13,005 bases of DNA from Nitrospirota bacterium (GTDB taxonomy: Bacteria > Nitrospirota > UBA9217): positions 1 through 13,005 of the forward strand of contig JAOUEV010000078.1 of NCBI GenBank assembly GCA_029858565.1. The letters run 5' to 3'. The stretch's first letter is position 1. Every line of letters starts with the position of its first letter. The position numbers and the translations under genes are program-made. This document shows, piece after piece, positions 4,701-11,748 of this stretch. The notes beneath the pieces are model-generated. The model was not told the origin of the DNA, did not search any database, and saw only the letters and a list, made by a program, of their open reading frames with translations.

Positions 4701-4729
4701 TTGACAAACCCTGCGGCATCATTCACAAT
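4701..4729 (+). promoter_or_regulatory. Putative sigma70 promoter producing a leaderless mRNA for the CheW-LysM gene
   Basis: Perfect TTGACA (4701-4706), 17-nt spacer, CACAAT (4724-4729), then 6 nt to ATG 4736. No Shine-Dalgarno sequence. Confidence 0.6.
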
Positions 4730-4735
4730 CACTCC

Positions 4736-7306
4736 ATGACACGTACCATTCTCCAGTTCACCCTCCAGGGCCGTCCGTTCGGCGTTTGGGAGAGCGACGT
4801 CGCGTCCGTTGTACGCGCGCATTCGCTTCACCATCTGCCGCTGACCCCGGCTTGTGTGGCCGGTATGGCCGTAATTGAGGACCGGGGGACGACCATCATT
4901 GACACCGGCGTCTGCGTCGGTCTTCAGCCGCAACGCGCTGACGTCAAAGCGTCGTTCCTGTTGATCGGCGACGGCAGCAAAAGAACGGGATATCGCGTCG
5001 AAGGTTCTGTTGAAACGGTTCCCTGTGAGGACGACCATATCCTGCCGCTGCCCGACCAGGTCAGGACCGAGATCCTGCGTTCCTGCGCTGTCCCGGACAG
5101 GACCATCATCCCGATCATAGAGATCAGACAATTGCAGGACCGCATCAGCAGAGGGATCATAGACGTTCCTGAACCTTCCGATAGCGGTGCACTTGAGAAG
5201 GTGCAGGCCGTCGACCAGAAGGCTGTTCGCGTTGTTTCCATCGCTGATGAGCGGCTGTGCGTTACCGGCACCGGTTCGGTTCTCGTGCCCGCGGGAGCAG
5301 GCGACCTTTGCGAAATACCAGGACCGGAAGGACGCCCGAACAGACTGCTCTTGCACAAAGGGAGGGTGGTACCGCTTCTGCCTGTTGCGGAACGCCTTGG
5401 CATGGAATCTTTTCGGAACTTTGCAGCGGTCCTGGTCATGGAGCTAGAAGGAAACTTTTATGGTCTGACTGTGGCCGCTGATCACGGACTTCTTGAAGAA
5501 GACGCTTTCACCATGAAGCCGCTGCCGCCGCTCGTTCAGGGCAGTTGCTTCCGAAATGCGGTCATCCACCAGGGGGAGGTTATACCGCTGATCGATCTCG
5601 CGGGGATCGTCACGGCCCGCTCCGGCACTGCTGACGAGCTGCCGCTTGCCGAGAGATATCGTCCTGCCCCATCGTTCCCGATGAAATTCCAAAAAGATGC
5701 CGTGAATATCACGGAAGTCGCCTTGTTCGGTGGAAAACATGGAATACCCCAGGATGAGGTGAGGGAGGTTCTGCCCTACTCGGCGCCGAGAAGAGTGCCC
5801 AATGCTCCCGCGATCGTTCTCGGCGTTATCGAGAGAAGCGGCAAGGTCCTCCCGGTGCTCGACCTTGCGGTGATCTTCGGAAGACGGTCGCCGGTTACTG
5901 ATACATGGAAGCTCGTTCACCTGGAAAACGGTGATTTCGAAGCGCTGGTGGCTGTTGAACAGATCCTGGGAGATAAACAGCTTTCCCTGGATGTTCAGAA
6001 GCAGGTGCCGATTGTTCTGCCCTATGACGTACTGTACGGCTGCTATCTTGACGAGAACGTAGTTCGCCTGATCGTGAACGTTCAGTCATTGACCGTCCAT
6101 TTTGAAGAGACCACGATCCGCGATTTCATGTCCACCATGAGCCCGGTTGTTGCTGAACCGCCGGTCATTATGCCCGCGACAGCGAATATCGGCCAGCCTC
6201 GTTCTGACGACAGGATGGACCGTGACACTGGAATATCATCACCGCCCGATACCCGTGAACAGCAGTCGTCTTACGAGCATCAGCCGGCACTGTATGCGTC
6301 GGGAAACAGAGAAATGCCGAAGGCCGCGCAGTCCTGGAGCGACCGCGTAGGGACAGGGCATCAGGCATATGAACAACCAGTATCGAAGGATAATCCACCA
6401 GTGCCGGAATCCGCACGATCCATTGATGATGAAAATGCGCGGATGCGGTCCGAAAAAGAACGTCTTGACGCGGAACAGGCTGCGCAGAGAGCAGAGGACG
6501 AACGGATAAAAGCGGAACAAGCCCGAGTTCAAGCCGAACGTGAGCGTCATGAAGCCGATGCAGCGCTGAAAGCTGAAGAGCAACGGCTGCAGCGGGAGCG
6601 GGTGCGGGAAGAAGAGGCTAGGCGGGCTCAAGAAGAGAAAGAGAGATTAGAGCGGGCCGCTGCGCAGGCAGAATCAGATCGAACCGAAAAGGCCCGATTG
6701 CAGGCTGAAGAAGAAAAAAGGTTCGAAGAGGAGCGGGTGAAACTGCGGGAAGCCCATGAATCCCGGGAACGGGAGCGGCGAAGGAAAGAACAAGAAATGG
6801 CAAGGGAATCGGCACCGGGACCGCGTTCTGCTGATGACCGCAGGATGCCCATCCCTGATGATCGACAGGAACAGGAATCATCCCGTCGAGCGGAATCCCC
6901 GCAAGTCCCTGGCAGGACCCATGCAGCCAGGAATATCATGGTGTCCCTGCTGGTCGCAGCAGTGCTGCTCCTTGTGTTCTTTTTCCCCGGGGCCGGCAAA
7001 AAGGACCGGGCTCCCGACGTTACTTCGAAGGCCAGGAGCACAGCGTCGAGCGATCACGCTGAGCATTCTGACAAGATCGGATCCGCACAAAAAGACCAGG
7101 AGCCGCCGCTGGTGCTTGCGGTGCCCAGGACCATGCCGGTTCCTGACCCGGCTGTTTATGTTGTTGCGAAAGGCGACACTCTCTGGAGCATAGCCAAACG
7201 CTTCACCGGGAACCCGCTGAACTACCCTCGTGTGGCAAAGGACAACAGTATTGCCACGCCAGACCTGATCTATCCCGGCCAGCGGATCAGGCTTAAAAAA
7301 GAATGA
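4736..7306 (+). CDS. Multi-CheW-domain membrane protein with C-terminal LysM (3x CheW-like, disordered linker, charged helical rod, TM, LysM)
   Basis: CheW-like repeats at aa ~1-133 (ILQFTLQGRPFGV...LPLTPACVAGMAVIEDRGTTIIDT), ~163-291 (HKGRVVPLLPVAERLG...QGEVIPLIDL) and ~324-453 (GIPQDEVREVL...RRVPNAPAIVLGVIERSGKVLPVLDLAVIFG). E/R/A-rich segment aa ~563-691. Hydrophobic IMVSLLVAAVLLLVFFF at aa ~734-750. LysM YVVAKGDTLWSIAKRF...PDLIYPGQRIRL at aa ~808-853. No N-terminal signal peptide. Confidence 0.85.
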   Translation: MTRTILQFTLQGRPFGVWESDVASVVRAHSLHHLPLTPACVAGMAVIEDRGTTIIDTGVCVGLQPQRADVKASFLLIGDGSKRTGYRVEGSVETVPCEDDHILPLPDQVRTEILRSCAVPDRTIIPIIEIRQLQDRISRGIIDVPEPSDSGALEKVQAVDQKAVRVVSIADERLCVTGTGSVLVPAGAGDLCEIPGPEGRPNRLLLHKGRVVPLLPVAERLGMESFRNFAAVLVMELEGNFYGLTVAADHGLLEEDAFTMKPLPPLVQGSCFRNAVIHQGEVIPLIDLAGIVTARSGTADELPLAERYRPAPSFPMKFQKDAVNITEVALFGGKHGIPQDEVREVLPYSAPRRVPNAPAIVLGVIERSGKVLPVLDLAVIFGRRSPVTDTWKLVHLENGDFEALVAVEQILGDKQLSLDVQKQVPIVLPYDVLYGCYLDENVVRLIVNVQSLTVHFEETTIRDFMSTMSPVVAEPPVIMPATANIGQPRSDDRMDRDTGISSPPDTREQQSSYEHQPALYASGNREMPKAAQSWSDRVGTGHQAYEQPVSKDNPPVPESARSIDDENARMRSEKERLDAEQAAQRAEDERIKAEQARVQAERERHEADAALKAEEQRLQRERVREEEARRAQEEKERLERAAAQAESDRTEKARLQAEEEKRFEEERVKLREAHESRERERRRKEQEMARESAPGPRSADDRRMPIPDDRQEQESSRRAESPQVPGRTHAARNIMVSLLVAAVLLLVFFFPGAGKKDRAPDVTSKARSTASSDHAEHSDKIGSAQKDQEPPLVLAVPRTMPVPDPAVYVVAKGDTLWSIAKRFTGNPLNYPRVAKDNSIATPDLIYPGQRIRLKKE

Positions 7307-7395: not shown

Positions 7396-7424
7396 TCGGC
7401 CTGCCCGGTTCTCGGGCAGGCCGA
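7396..7424. terminator. Probable intrinsic terminator hairpin between convergent genes
   Basis: TCGGCCTGCCCG-GTTCT-CGGGCAGGCCGA is a perfect 12-bp stem. It is followed by TCATTTT on the minus strand and CACTGTCTTT on the plus strand. Confidence 0.65.
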
Positions 7425-7489: not shown

Positions 7490-8695
7490 TTACTGGGGCG
7501 CAGTCATCGGAGTTCCTCCCGGAGGACCGACGAGAAGTTCGAGTGAATTCGCTGTTGACGCGGCGACATCAACGGAAAAATCACCAAAGGTCTTTGACGA
7601 AAGTTCGTCTGACAGGACCTGGGCGCTGCCTTTGTAATCGACCGATATTTTTGCGACACCGTTCGAGAAGCTTCGTTCATGGATCTCTTTGATGCCGCGC
7701 ACCTGGTTCTTGAGCACGTCCTTGAACTTCACGAACTGGCTCTTGTTCAAACCGGTGACCGTGATATTGACCGACCTGGTGCCTCCGGTCTCCCTGGAGT
7801 ACATGGCCAGTATCTTCGTCGTCAGCTGATCTGCGGCGTTCGCTGCGGCTTTCTTGAGCGCTTCGTTCCCGGCCGTGAGGTCGTTCGAATGGACCGCCGG
7901 CGCGTTGGTCGATACCGAGGCCAGAACCTGGCCGGTGTCCGTGCGGACCGCTTTCAGCACAAGGTTCGCCTGGGCCGACTTGAGCGCGCCGATCGTGCTC
8001 TGGATCTTCGAGAACGCCTTGCCGACGATGACGACCTCGGCGCCTGCCTGATTCCCCAGGGTCTGCGCCTGGGATGACGACAGATCCGTGACGTTATAGG
8101 CAGCGGTCACCGAGATCCTGCCCGCGGAAGCGGCGTGGTCGATCATCTCGAATCCCTTTTCCGTGAACTTGTCCATAAGCACGCTCTCGACGATTGCCAT
8201 GTCGCTCTGCTGGGCATATGTCCCGCCGCGCCACCAGGCATAGAGCTCCTGGCCGATGTTCTGCTCGGCGACGAGGATCATGGTGCGGGGTTTGTGCATC
8301 TGACCGAGAAGTATGCCGACGGCGGACATGTCGTCGGTAAGTTTGCCCAGGGAGACCTCTGCGGTGATGACGACGCGCAGCAGGTTCCCTTCCACGATCT
8401 CGTTCGTTATGTTGTAGCGTTTGATGTATCCCTTGGTCTGGGAAAGGATCTTGTCGCTGATGACCTGGTAGTTCTCCACCTGGGTCTGCGAGTCGATGAG
8501 CGTTCCGATCGCCTGCTCCACAGCCCGTTGTTGGGCATCCTGGATTGCGGCATCGCGGGCGATGTCGCGCAGGTTGTTCTGGATCACGGCGACACCTTCG
8601 GCAGAAACTGTCTTGGATTCGTCCTGGGCGGCTGCGGGGAAGGCGGTCAACAACAGGGCAAACAGCAGGAGCAGATGTTTTTTGATCCCTGGCAT
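7490..8695 (-). CDS. Secreted protein with an FlgT N-terminal/LPP20-like domain followed by a TolB-N/CsgG-like alpha/beta domain
   Basis: Start MPGIKK (ATG 8695) after AAGGAGGA. Sec signal peptide KKHLLLLFALLLTAFPAAA-Q. VSAEGVAVI...ARDAAIQDAQQRAVEQAIGTLIDSQTQVENYQVISDKILSQTKGYIKRY...LRVVITAEV resembles FlgT_N. AGAEVVIVG...LKAVRTDTGQVLAS resembles CsgG/TolB-N-like domains. 401 aa. Domain calls are by recognition, not HMM. Confidence 0.75.
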   Translation of the reverse strand: MPGIKKHLLLLFALLLTAFPAAAQDESKTVSAEGVAVIQNNLRDIARDAAIQDAQQRAVEQAIGTLIDSQTQVENYQVISDKILSQTKGYIKRYNITNEIVEGNLLRVVITAEVSLGKLTDDMSAVGILLGQMHKPRTMILVAEQNIGQELYAWWRGGTYAQQSDMAIVESVLMDKFTEKGFEMIDHAASAGRISVTAAYNVTDLSSSQAQTLGNQAGAEVVIVGKAFSKIQSTIGALKSAQANLVLKAVRTDTGQVLASVSTNAPAVHSNDLTAGNEALKKAAANAADQLTTKILAMYSRETGGTRSVNITVTGLNKSQFVKFKDVLKNQVRGIKEIHERSFSNGVAKISVDYKGSAQVLSDELSSKTFGDFSVDVAASTANSLELLVGPPGGTPMTAPQ

Positions 8696-8746
8696 GGGAG
8701 TTCCTCCTTGGTTCGCGTGGAGATGCGAGCAGGTCCAACGTGAGCA

Positions 8747-8775
8747 ACTATACCAGAGTGCGGGAATGTGGTCAA
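8747..8775 (-). promoter_or_regulatory. Putative sigma70 promoter for the FlgT-like gene
   Basis: Minus strand TTGACC (8775-8770), 17-nt spacer, TATAGT (8752-8747) with TGn extension. Confidence 0.65.
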
Positions 8776-8795
8776 GGTACCAGTACCGTTCCCGG

Positions 8796-8815
8796 GAAAA
8801 TATCTGGATATTTTC
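8796..8815. promoter_or_regulatory. Perfect AT-rich inverted repeat, candidate operator
   Basis: GAAAATATC-TG-GATATTTTC (9-2-9), overlapping the predicted pdxJ -35 element. Confidence 0.45.
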
Positions 8816-8833
8816 AGTGCTCAATGATAGAAT
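8805..8833 (+). promoter_or_regulatory. Putative sigma70 promoter for the pdxJ cluster
   Basis: TGGATA (8805-8810), 17-nt spacer, TAGAAT (8828-8833) with TGn extension. Confidence 0.55.
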
Positions 8834-10192: not shown

Positions 10193-11748
10193 ATGAAGCT
10201 TGTTACGGCAAAAGAAATGACGAACATCGACCGAAGGGCGATCCGTGAGTTCGGCATCCCCGGAATGGTCCTCATGGAAAATGCCGCCGCAGCCGTCATG
10301 CAGGAGATGGAACGGCATTTTGAGGGACTCGCTGGAGTCAAGGTGGGTATCGTCTGCGGCAGGGGAACAACGGGGGCGACGGTCTGGCCCTGGCCCGGAG
10401 ACTCAGGAACCGCGGTTGGGCGGTACGCGTTGCGCTGCTCGCGCCTTTTGCCTCGCTCAAGGGCGAGGCAAAGCAGAACCTGTCCATCCTGCGGAAAACC
10501 GATGTGGAGATCCTGCCCAATGCATCGGCAACGGCCCTGGGAGAGGTCATTTCCTGGTCCGACATCCTGGTGGACGCTTTACTCGGCATCGGGTTGAGCA
10601 AACCGCTCAAGGGCAGCTACTCGCTGGCTGTCGAACTGATGAACCTTTGCGCCAAACCGGTCGTTGCCGTGGATATTCCGACCGGTATCGATGCTGACAC
10701 GGGACAGGTGCTGGGATCGGCGGTGCGCGCCTGCCTGACCGTAACCCTGGGACTGCCTAAACGGGGTCTCTATCTTTATCCCGGAGCTGACTTTGCGGGA
10801 AAGGTCGCTGTCGCAGATATAGGCATCCCCTCAGAGGTCATTGAAAAAGAGCGCGTAAGGACCAACGTCCTCGACAGTTCCCTGATGCAGGATGCCATGG
10901 ATCTCCGCGAACGGAACGGCCATAAAGGGGACTATGGTCATCTGATGGTGCTGGCGGGTTCCCTGGGCAAGGCCGGCGCGGCTGTCATGACGGCGCTAGG
11001 GGCACTCAGGAGCGGAGCCGGTCTTGTCACGGTTGCCGCGCCTGCTGGCATCGTACCCATCCTGCAGCAGCAGGTGTTCGAAGCCATGTGCATGCCTGCG
11101 GGAGAAAGCATTGACGGCACTCTCGGCATGGGGGCGGAAAACGAGATCCTGAAGGCATCTGCAGGGATGTCAGCAATGGCCGTCGGCCCGGGTCTGACGA
11201 CCCATGCCGAGACCGTGCAGGTGGTTAAAAACCTGCTCCGCAGGTTGCAGGTGCCGCTGGTGATCGACGCGGATGGATTGAACGCTCTCGCCGGTTCAGC
11301 GGATATCCTGAAAGGCACCAGGATGCCGGTGATCGTGACGCCTCATCCCGGAGAAATGGCGCGTCTTGCGGGAATTTCTTCCCGGGAGGTTCAGAACGAC
11401 CGGATCGGAACAGCAAGTTCCTTTGCGCTGAAGTACGGAGTGACCGTAGTGCTGAAAGGCGCCGGAACGATCGTTGCCACGCCCCAGGGCGATGTTTTTT
11501 TGAATACGACCGGTAATCCGGGCATGGCGACAGCGGGAACCGGAGACGTGCTGACCGGCATGATCGCGGGACTGCTCGCGCAGGGATATCACACCTTGGA
11601 AGCGGCCTGCATAGGGGTCCATGTTCACGGAGCAGCCGGGGATCTCGCCGCACGGGAAAAGGGCGAAGCCTCAATGATCGCCGGCGATCTGATCGGGAAG
11701 ATCCCGGCCGCGATCCGGAACATAACAGCTGCCGCAGGTGAAAACTAA
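10193..11748 (+). CDS. nnr: Bifunctional NAD(P)H-hydrate epimerase/dehydratase (YjeF/Nnr), interrupted by a 1-nt frameshift at ~10362-10367 (sequencing error or pseudogene)
   Basis: From ATG 10193 the frame reads MKLVTAKEMTNIDRRAI...LMENAA...IVCGRG. It continues in another frame from 10366 as NNGGDGLALARRL...VDALLGIG...AVDIPTG...HKGDYG...GAGLV...GPGL...VIDADGLN...TPHPGEMARL...VLKG...MATAGTGDVLTG. Adding one base restores the CGxGNNGGDG motif and a ~518-aa protein. Confidence 0.9.

Follow-up and report, generated by a model that had tools for sequence, protein, structure and literature searches.

A Nitrospirota protein with three CheW-like domains, one transmembrane segment and a LysM domain: a candidate wall-anchored tether for chemosensory arrays

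To our knowledge, the placement of chemosensory arrays is understood in few models; in Vibrio and Pseudomonas it is due to the HubP/FimV-ParC-ParP chain, and elsewhere to membrane curvature or stochastic nucleation. HubP/FimV proteins, which are polar landmarks, carry an N-terminal periplasmic LysM domain and a transmembrane segment, and their C-terminal part, with the FimV motif, is cytoplasmic; ParP is a soluble protein formed by an N-terminal ParC-binding region and one C-terminal CheW-like domain. The chemosensory baseplate lies some tens of nm below the membrane, and CheA has a CheW-like domain of its own, named P5. Other bitopic proteins, of the MotB/Pal type, have the N-terminus inside and a periplasmic OmpA-family domain that binds peptidoglycan. 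The protein considered here is encoded by an open reading frame (ORF) of 856 amino acids (aa) at positions 4736-7306 (+) of a stretch of 13,005 nucleotides from a Nitrospirota bacterium (contig JAOUEV010000078.1, assembly GCA_029858565.1), referred to as the window; the ORF list, Pfam and a full-length model assign to it three CheW-like domains, a spacer, a transmembrane segment and a LysM domain.

In ordinary CheW, CheA-P5 is bound by subdomain 2 through its strands beta4-beta5 and the receptor tip by the subdomain junction, while FrzB of Myxococcus xanthus is described as a divergent CheW without the CheA-binding beta4-beta5 (PMC6952110). CheW-like domains can also serve as anchors: ParP of Vibrio is reported to tether arrays to ParC at the pole through its C-terminal, array-integrating CheW-like domain (PMC5706961), and in CheWS of Treponema denticola the CheW domain is reported to anchor a sensor to the array (PMC10653840). 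Fused forms named CheW.II and CheW.III, in which the CheW-like domains number two or three and no other domain is detectable, are given as 1-3% as abundant as single CheW in the preprints of Vass et al. (bioRxiv 10.1101/2022.05.07.491035,.491037), which covered architectures with at least 40 Pfam sequences and in whose text LysM is absent; the 3xCheW of Vibrio cholerae joins an unusual methyl-accepting chemotaxis protein (MCP) to CheA in cytoplasmic arrays (bioRxiv 10.1101/2022.05.07.491037). CheW-only rings in kinase-free hexagons of the 12-nm lattice are reported by Cassidy et al. 2015 (PMC6746300).

The reading preferred here, which we regard as evenly poised between being right and wrong, is that the window protein is a wall-anchored tether or scaffold for chemosensory arrays. 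A rigid cytoplasmic module of three CheW-lineage domains, at the N-terminus of a bitopic inner-membrane protein whose N-terminus is inside, would occupy, in a transmembrane chemoreceptor array, CheW-type positions inside the CheW/CheA-P5 lattice of the baseplate or along the edge of that lattice; a long acidic spacer, flexible or helical, would return from the baseplate to the membrane, and a single transmembrane segment would join it to a periplasmic linker of ~50 aa and then to the LysM domain on peptidoglycan. The LysM domain would fix the protein to the sacculus, so that the array would be pinned, positioned or nucleated at a fixed wall site. The wall-anchor half of this hypothesis is well supported; for the array-integration half, homology and precedent make a plausible case. 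In particular, a CheW-type array role is supported by three CheW folds, by domain profiles nearer to CheW than to P5, by a beta4-beta5 stretch kept in domain 3, by the chemosensory systems of the carriers, and by the precedents for CheW-like array anchors (ParP, CheWS and the V. cholerae 3xCheW). The protein contacts of the CheW module, its anchoring by peptidoglycan binding and the cellular effect are those that we infer from this set of observations.

The CheW family PF01584 matches the whole protein with 110.1 bits over three stretches, and all three domains, scanned as separate thirds, singly pass the Pfam gathering score of 23.5 bits. Domain 1 (aa 1-140, positions 4736-5155; 43.4 bits over aa 5-134) is modelled with strands within residues 2-128 and a helix at 130-138; domain 2 (aa 161-296, 5216-5623; 32.0 bits over aa ~189-294) is the least conserved, with a mean pairwise identity in the family of 0.35 against 0.43 for domain 1; domain 3 (aa 319-456, 5690-6103; 52.3 bits over aa 335-452) is the most conserved, with a mean identity of 0.57, and it contains most of the invariant alignment columns and the NGDF and YGCY motifs. 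Domains 2 and 3 are joined by a conserved linker motif (aa 306-318, 5651-5689), recognizable in three family alignments and modelled with short helices at 304-307 and 313-317, in which the aromatic motif Y308, S312, F314, F318 is invariant or nearly so. These and the following features of the protein are all on the plus strand. The AlphaFold2 model of aa 1-470, built with 35 homologues, has a mean predicted local distance difference test score (pLDDT) of 87.7 and a predicted template modelling score (pTM) of 0.83; the latter value, for a module of 470 aa, suggests that the three domains are held in a fixed mutual arrangement. A prediction of a two-copy complex of the same residues, run without controls, gave a score of 0.00 and counts neither for nor against a homodimer.

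Foldseek against the PDB returned 18 matches at E<=0.001, of which the 17 listed (ranks 1-17) belong without exception to CheW or CheA, with template modelling scores by target of 0.66-0.85 for CheW chains and 0.28-0.41 for the longer CheA chains; the CheW of the E. coli core signalling unit (6s1k_C), for instance, is matched with E 3.4e-10 and a score of 0.80. The model and these matches thus assign to the CheW domains the two-subdomain double SH3-like beta-barrel fold. The comparison of the family profiles with hhalign gave, for domains 1 to 3, probabilities of 97.4, 99.3 and 97.6% against the 15 single CheWs of the genome, and of 32.5, 94.3 and 85.9% against its six CheA-P5 domains; by profile, all three domains are nearer to CheW than to CheA-P5. 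They have no significant BLAST similarity to one another (E>=0.07), and only domain 3 keeps a stretch of 41-42 aa that is 45-55% identical, by BLAST, to eight ordinary CheWs of the genome. HMMER aligns this stretch with residues 13-65 of E. coli CheW (chain 8c5v_E), around '...GVTNLRGVIVPIVDL...', and by this alignment it corresponds to the CheA-P5-binding beta4-beta5 region.

The transmembrane segment (aa 734-752, 6935-6991) has a Kyte-Doolittle hydropathy of 2.71 over 19 aa, is modelled as a helix at 734-749, and is found in all 34 aligned full-length homologues, where it is followed by a tail of 89-194 aa with LysM. No signal peptide was detected: the protein opens with the first strand of domain 1, and 12-residue hydropathy peaks at 0.96 within the first 36 aa; no hydrophobic segment was found in the N-terminal 473 residues either, where the highest 19-residue value is 1.32 (family maximum 1.91). 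In the 15 aa that flank the transmembrane segment of the 34 homologues, Lys and Arg number on average 4.0 before and 2.6 after it, being more frequent before it in 24, equal in 5 and fewer in 5. A single transmembrane segment, the lack of a signal peptide, an N-terminal part of 730 aa without a hydrophobic segment and the positive-inside bias place the LysM domain in the periplasm, and an N-in/C-out bitopic protein is, by the logic of topology, the only reasonable reading. The predicted periplasmic LysM domain (aa 792-855, 7109-7300) is matched by PF01476 at aa 808-853 with 42.9/44.2 bits against a cut-off of 20.9, shows 17 invariant or nearly invariant columns in the alignment, and is modelled as a beta-alpha-alpha-beta fold (strands 792-796, 807-809 and 850-855; helices 816-824 and 827-836; pLDDT 82-91); it is predicted to bind peptidoglycan.

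The role of the C-terminus can be judged from the members in which another domain stands in the LysM position. Four members carry an OmpA-family domain there (L033 with 60, P0117 with 63, P0130 with 59 and P0151 with 51 bits). In P0117, P0130 and P0151 a transmembrane segment precedes this domain; L033, from a metagenome-assembled genome (MAG) of Spirochaetota, has the NGDF and YGCY motifs, an acidic spacer, a transmembrane segment at 654-675 preceded by RDERRDDRAKRGSRKRR, and OmpA (PF00691). In a FastTree phylogeny of the N-terminal modules of 146 members, P0117, P0128, P0130 and P0151 form one clade (support 0.80) and L033 groups with the LysM-bearing L032 and P0099 (support 0.95). With midpoint rooting the common ancestor of the OmpA forms is the root, and after re-rooting on the window protein they take two placements. 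Branches are long (1.65 and 2.22), so the count is kept cautious: LysM and OmpA appear to have been exchanged at least once and probably twice. Two unrelated peptidoglycan-binding folds share the same position, and this comparison speaks strongly for wall anchoring as the function for which the C-terminus is selected.

The original prediction, made from the window sequence alone, had proposed three CheW-like repeats at the N-terminus without a signal peptide, a single transmembrane segment and a C-terminal LysM facing the periplasm as a peptidoglycan anchor, in a window devoid of other che or MCP genes. All of this was confirmed or, for the anchor, supported: each domain exceeds its Pfam cut-off, the CheW and LysM folds are modelled, the PDB matches listed are all CheW or CheA chains, hydropathy and charge bias agree on the topology, the OmpA-family replacement argues for the anchor, and no che or MCP gene was found by Pfam among the 12 other long ORFs of the window. 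The same prediction had drawn the region between domain 3 and the membrane as a helical rod, which holds for the window protein and not for the family, as the spacer makes clear.

In the full-length model (34 homologues, mean pLDDT 76.1) the spacer begins with a predicted disordered segment of 90 aa (aa 473-562, 6152-6421), with pLDDT below 50 and poorly aligned in two family alignments; it continues with a single helix of 128 aa (aa 564-691, 6425-6808), assigned by DSSP and unbroken in the model, with pLDDT of 69-89 by blocks of ten residues and mostly 79-89, and a second disordered stretch separates this helix from the transmembrane one. At 0.15 nm per residue, the long helix would measure ~19 nm. 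It is composed of 27% Glu, 21% Arg, 17% Ala and 6% Lys, with 10% strong hydrophobics; a heptad scan finds at most 17% strong hydrophobics at a/d in any register, and opposite-charge i/i+4 pairs number 33 against 21.9 +/- 3.7 in shuffles. Such composition and salt-bridge pattern are the signature of the ER/K single alpha-helix. Given the absence of a hydrophobic heptad register and the excess of i/i+4 opposite-charge pairs, the rod looks like an ER/K helix; a coiled coil was considered and rejected in its favour.

The distance between domain 3 and the transmembrane segment is 171-384 aa in the 34 aligned homologues and about 260 aa in the window protein. The spacer is Glu/Arg/Ala-rich in Nitrospirota members and Glu/Ala/Pro/Ser-rich in Gallionella-type members; it is poorly conserved and net acidic in 33 of the 34. 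Members of 1,210-1,627 aa hold only CheW and LysM domains, so that only their spacer is longer, reaching ~700-1,050 aa as estimated from the Pfam coordinates. Judged from this variation, the conserved feature is a long acidic tether and not a ruler, and a spacer of this kind fits a tether that would need to reach the baseplate.

The family is large, phylogenetically scattered and, as judged from database names, uncharacterised. A word-based search retrieved 11 relatives with both Pfam families and one partial; a locus scan with one genome per species gave 35 loci, all in MAGs, with titles of Nitrospirota/Nitrospiraceae, Gallionella, Nitrosomonadales, 'beta proteobacterium', Deltaproteobacteria, Desulfuromonadales and Spirochaetota. 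By eye, the LysM motif ends 31 of the 35 ORFs, one has an OmpA-like tail, and the other three are incomplete, that of L019 being cut by the end of its contig and those of L022 and L029 terminating early; the L022 homologue is a 609-aa ORF followed by a second of 228 aa and that of L029 has 747 aa, as expected of frameshifts or assembly errors in MAG contigs. A profile of the triple-CheW module found 496 representatives of 50%-identity clusters at E<=1e-30; the best 150, all at E<=2e-107, mostly span the full length of the profile, apart from a few cut pieces. With a LysM hidden Markov model built from the family, LysM was found in 129 of 152 members. Among the other 23, three have a transmembrane segment and OmpA, two are ambiguous (P0138 and P0141), and 18 show no hydrophobic segment past domain 3, end inside the spacer and look truncated. 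In two genomes of the same phylum (G062 and G122, family f16), ORFs of ~500 aa match the first two domains only (E 2.5e-32 and 1.2e-24) and may represent a two-domain CheW form related to the family.

The original prediction had not recognised the architecture as that of a characterised protein. Full-text literature searches on CheW with LysM or peptidoglycan binding gave no description of it, and it may appear in Fig. S10 of PMC10653840 or in the supplements of Vass et al.; the databases do carry names for it, all of them automatic, such as 'chemotaxis signal transduction protein/nucleoid-associated protein YgaU', 'chemotaxis protein CheW', 'hypothetical protein' and, for a cluster of 108 members, 'CheW-like/LysM domain-containing protein'. 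Muok et al. 2023 count 30 undescribed CheW architectures in Pfam and list them in that figure (PMC10653840), and triple-CheW/LysM may be among them.

The carriers are equipped with chemosensory systems, as the proposed array role would require. The genome of the window protein (3.9 Mb, 144 contigs) has 25 CheW-domain matches, which include six CheA-sized genes, 15 single CheWs, CheV and the triple-CheW gene itself. The CheA dimerisation domain is found in all five carriers from other phyla (2, 2, 3, 1 and 3 matches), and CheA-like genes occur in 32/32 relatives, namely 12/12 carriers and 20/20 non-carriers; the objection foreseen in the original prediction, carriers devoid of cheA, thus fails. 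The flagellar-type CheA is the only type common to three other-phylum carriers and the genome's own proteome; two Gallionella-type genomes have a flagellar-type and a Pil-Chp-like cluster each, and in the Spirochaetota carrier, whose MAG may be incomplete, a single CheA was detected, of flagellar type. The genome of the window protein also has a pilus-type (Pil-Chp-like) cluster (L036, G000:C88:2279-11416) with REC-DUF4388, CheY-like REC, CheW, MCP, CheA-REC (893 aa), two small CheWs and a REC protein; the best, though weak, BLAST matches of domain 1 are divergent CheWs, two of the top three being from this cluster. A 437-aa protein with one LysM at aa 92-139 (L041:6905-8218 on the minus strand, G000:C41:104904-106217), whose gene is 7 kb away from a che cluster of flagellar type, may be a landmark protein of the FimV/HubP kind. 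Between the triple-CheW gene and this protein, the SLT-LysM transglycosylase or the CheV of the same genome, no link was seen.

Several observations weigh against the tether, and most of them favour the first of its competitors. Of the genome's 25 CheW-domain matches, these three domains score lowest (31.8-52.2 bits, against 71.5-135.7 for the others), and the canonical Arg of the 'NLRG' motif, taken here as the functionally important R62 of E. coli, is aligned to a Ser of domain 3 and varies across the family; by this alignment, its loss speaks against a fully canonical CheW role. CheA or CheW genes are absent within three genes of the family gene in all 33 displayed loci, as in the window, and an MCP gene lies within three genes in three of them (L013, L024 and L034), on the opposite strand; a GGDEF protein (REC-GGDEF or PAS-GGDEF-EAL), in turn, is encoded at most three genes upstream in 10 Gallionella-type loci and is adjacent in nine. 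The search with the C41-type CheA, one of the six CheAs of the genome, disclosed among the 32 relatives no CheA type confined to carriers: its orthologue (at least 52% identity) is present in 9/12 carriers and 17/20 non-carriers, and, in our own reading of the same search, the CheA-REC type of ~900 aa is present in most carriers and most non-carriers. Furthermore, the distribution is patchy, the module being found in 15 of the 201 genomes of the phylum sample (two of them as weak partial matches of ~500 aa) and in 11 of the 44 genomes of the same family, with patchiness also within genera; most relatives with arrays therefore do without the protein.

The divergence of the domains with the loss of the canonical Arg, a gene that is never in a che operon and the lack of covariation with a CheA type would also be expected if the protein were a wall-anchored adaptor for a partner outside chemotaxis, its CheW-like double SH3-like domains being reused as a generic binding platform. 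Such an adaptor would be a landmark for polar, flagellar or pilus-associated complexes or for cyclic di-GMP (c-di-GMP) enzymes, functionally nearer to HubP/FimV than to CheW, and it would be the first such use of the fold. Its neighbours lend it some colour: a convergent FlgT_N-like gene adjoins in nine Nitrospirota loci, and proteins with GGDEF, EAL and REC domains flank the gene in the Gallionella-type ones. However, the order FolD - triple-CheW-LysM gene - FlgT_N-like - PdxJ - AcpS is kept only among Nitrospirota loci and the PLD - ABC - DD-carboxypeptidase - GGDEF context only among Gallionella-type loci; because each neighbourhood is confined to one lineage, and may reflect shared ancestry rather than function, synteny is here weak evidence of function. 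By profile, each of the three domains is still matched to CheW (97-99% probability), the canonical beta4-beta5 stretch persists in domain 3, CheA is found in every carrier examined and characterised CheW-like domains are not known to act outside chemosensory arrays; we thus regard an adaptor outside chemotaxis as unlikely, though not far-fetched.

The c-di-GMP neighbours bear on a further possibility, in which the protein, held by peptidoglycan at one end and by a kinase-controlling lattice at the other, would sense the state of the envelope, relaying changes of wall-membrane geometry (turgor, surface contact or wall damage) either to CheA or to an output of the Wsp-like c-di-GMP type. The combination of a rigid ER/K helix with flexible segments, arranged in series, could suit such a device, REC-GGDEF or PAS-GGDEF-EAL genes are near in 10 Gallionella-type loci, with a peptidoglycan DD-carboxypeptidase gene upstream in the same clusters, and an EAL-GGDEF gene lies two genes downstream in one Nitrospirota locus. 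The spacer, however, with lengths between 171 and about 1,000 aa and a Pro-rich, probably disordered make-up in many members, would be a poor force transmitter; the periplasmic part consists only of a linker and LysM, with no sensor domain, and the c-di-GMP neighbours are limited to one lineage. The relay of wall state, already put forward in the original prediction, found no specific support and appears improbable.

A bolder form of array integration can be drawn from the CheW-only rings. The fused triple CheW would be the preformed half of a CheW-only hexameric ring, two chains together completing the ring of six within the kinase-free hexagons of the lattice of receptors; the spacers would climb to the membrane along the hexagon's centre, which is free of receptors, and there the LysM or OmpA domain would pin the lattice node to peptidoglycan. 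This proposal, which we hold to be highly speculative and very probably wrong, would, if true, imply a covalently wall-registered array, with a direct route from sacculus geometry to array order and then to kinase cooperativity. Least credible of all is a decoy, in which a membrane- and wall-bound CheW module would sequester CheA or receptors off the lattice and lower or spatially restrict signalling by one of the many chemosensory systems: the gene is accessory and patchy in genomes with many CheA and CheW paralogues and excess CheW is known to disturb arrays, but a decoy has no evident need for a long spacer or for a wall anchor conserved across phyla and exchanged for OmpA.

As regards the locus, the triple-CheW-LysM gene looks monocistronic. 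A promoter-like site (TTGACA-17-CACAAT, 10/12 positions of the consensus, 4701-4729, +) lies upstream, its -10 hexamer ending 7 nt 5' of the ATG, with no obvious Shine-Dalgarno motif, so that the mRNA possibly lacks a leader or has only a very short one; the site is a consensus match only, and the scan, with 2 sites against 1.0 +/- 1.1 in shuffles, is weak evidence. A terminator-like hairpin of 13 pairs, 10 of them G-C (7396-7424, +), likewise a consensus match only, lies between the gene and the convergent FlgT_N-like gene at 7490-8824 (-). The latter encodes a protein of 444 aa with FlgT_N (34.5 bits; cut-off 28.8) and a DUF3280 match below threshold, and its homologues in the nine Nitrospirota loci are 58-72% identical; a flagellar H-ring-type domain beside a CheW-LysM gene is suggestive, within a synteny bound to lineage. 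The genes that neighbour the triple-CheW-LysM gene in the window are 54-87% identical to those of Nitrospirota MAG loci, with one weak match at 34%, and mark the organism as a Nitrospirota member. At 10193-11718 (+) a YjeF_N/Carb_kinase (Nnr-type) gene is seemingly split over two frames. Frame 2 (10193-10372) matches residues 1-60 of the L007 homologue and frame 1 (10423-11718) its residues 78-509, a pattern due to a frameshift or an assembly error. In the Gallionella-type loci (L003, L009, L015-L018, L020, L021, L026 and L030) a conserved same-strand run leads up to the homologue, formed by a PLD-type phospholipase, an ABC exporter, a DD-carboxypeptidase (Peptidase_S11), a protein of ~170-260 aa, a REC-GGDEF or PAS-GGDEF-EAL protein and the triple-CheW-LysM gene, and it often continues with a metallophosphoesterase and another PAS-GGDEF-EAL or REC protein.

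If the tether is real, arrays would be placed in a new and simple way, by one protein connecting CheW-type lattice positions with peptidoglycan, and this would also be the first direct link between array and wall. The hundreds of 50%-identity clusters across Nitrospirota, Gallionella-type Betaproteobacteria, Desulfuromonadales-type and Spirochaetota MAGs point to a recurring design, and the LysM-to-OmpA exchange makes its anchoring half unusually well supported for a case built from sequence alone.

Among the known systems, the MotB/Pal-type proteins resemble the four family members that end with a transmembrane segment, a linker and an OmpA-family domain; unlike them, the family protein has no acidic residue in the transmembrane segment and a cytoplasmic part of 650-750 aa in place of a short tail, and no stator or Tol-Pal partner genes were seen. 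FrzB is likewise a divergent CheW, described as an array organiser rather than a kinase coupler (PMC6952110), but it is a soluble single domain without beta4-beta5, a stretch that domain 3 of the window protein keeps. CheW.III shares three tandem CheW-lineage domains in one chain; it is soluble and without other domains, whereas the family protein adds the spacer, the transmembrane segment and LysM or OmpA, falling outside the definition of CheW.III, which excludes other domains, and its CheW domains are much more divergent. In CheWS, which combines CheW with a CheR-like S-adenosylmethionine sensor, the CheW domain is reported to anchor the appended part, as proposed here (PMC10653840); that part is a cytoplasmic sensor below the rings in CheWS and a membrane and wall anchor in the family protein. 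With HubP/FimV the family protein shares a single LysM, a single transmembrane segment, a long acidic cytoplasmic region and the proposed link to the positioning of chemotaxis arrays, in reversed order, LysM being N-terminal in HubP/FimV, which have no CheW, and C-terminal here; the FimV family is absent among the NCBIfam matches of the window protein, and the FimV profile TIGR03505 had no match in its genome, the control genomes being equally without one. The proposal that the HubP-ParC-ParP chain is collapsed into one polypeptide, also advanced in the original prediction, stays an analogy. ParP, compared by description, is alike in the proposed use, as in both cases a CheW-like domain would hook the array to a positioning system; ParP, soluble and with one such domain, reaches the wall through ParC and HubP, whereas the family protein would carry the anchor in the same chain.

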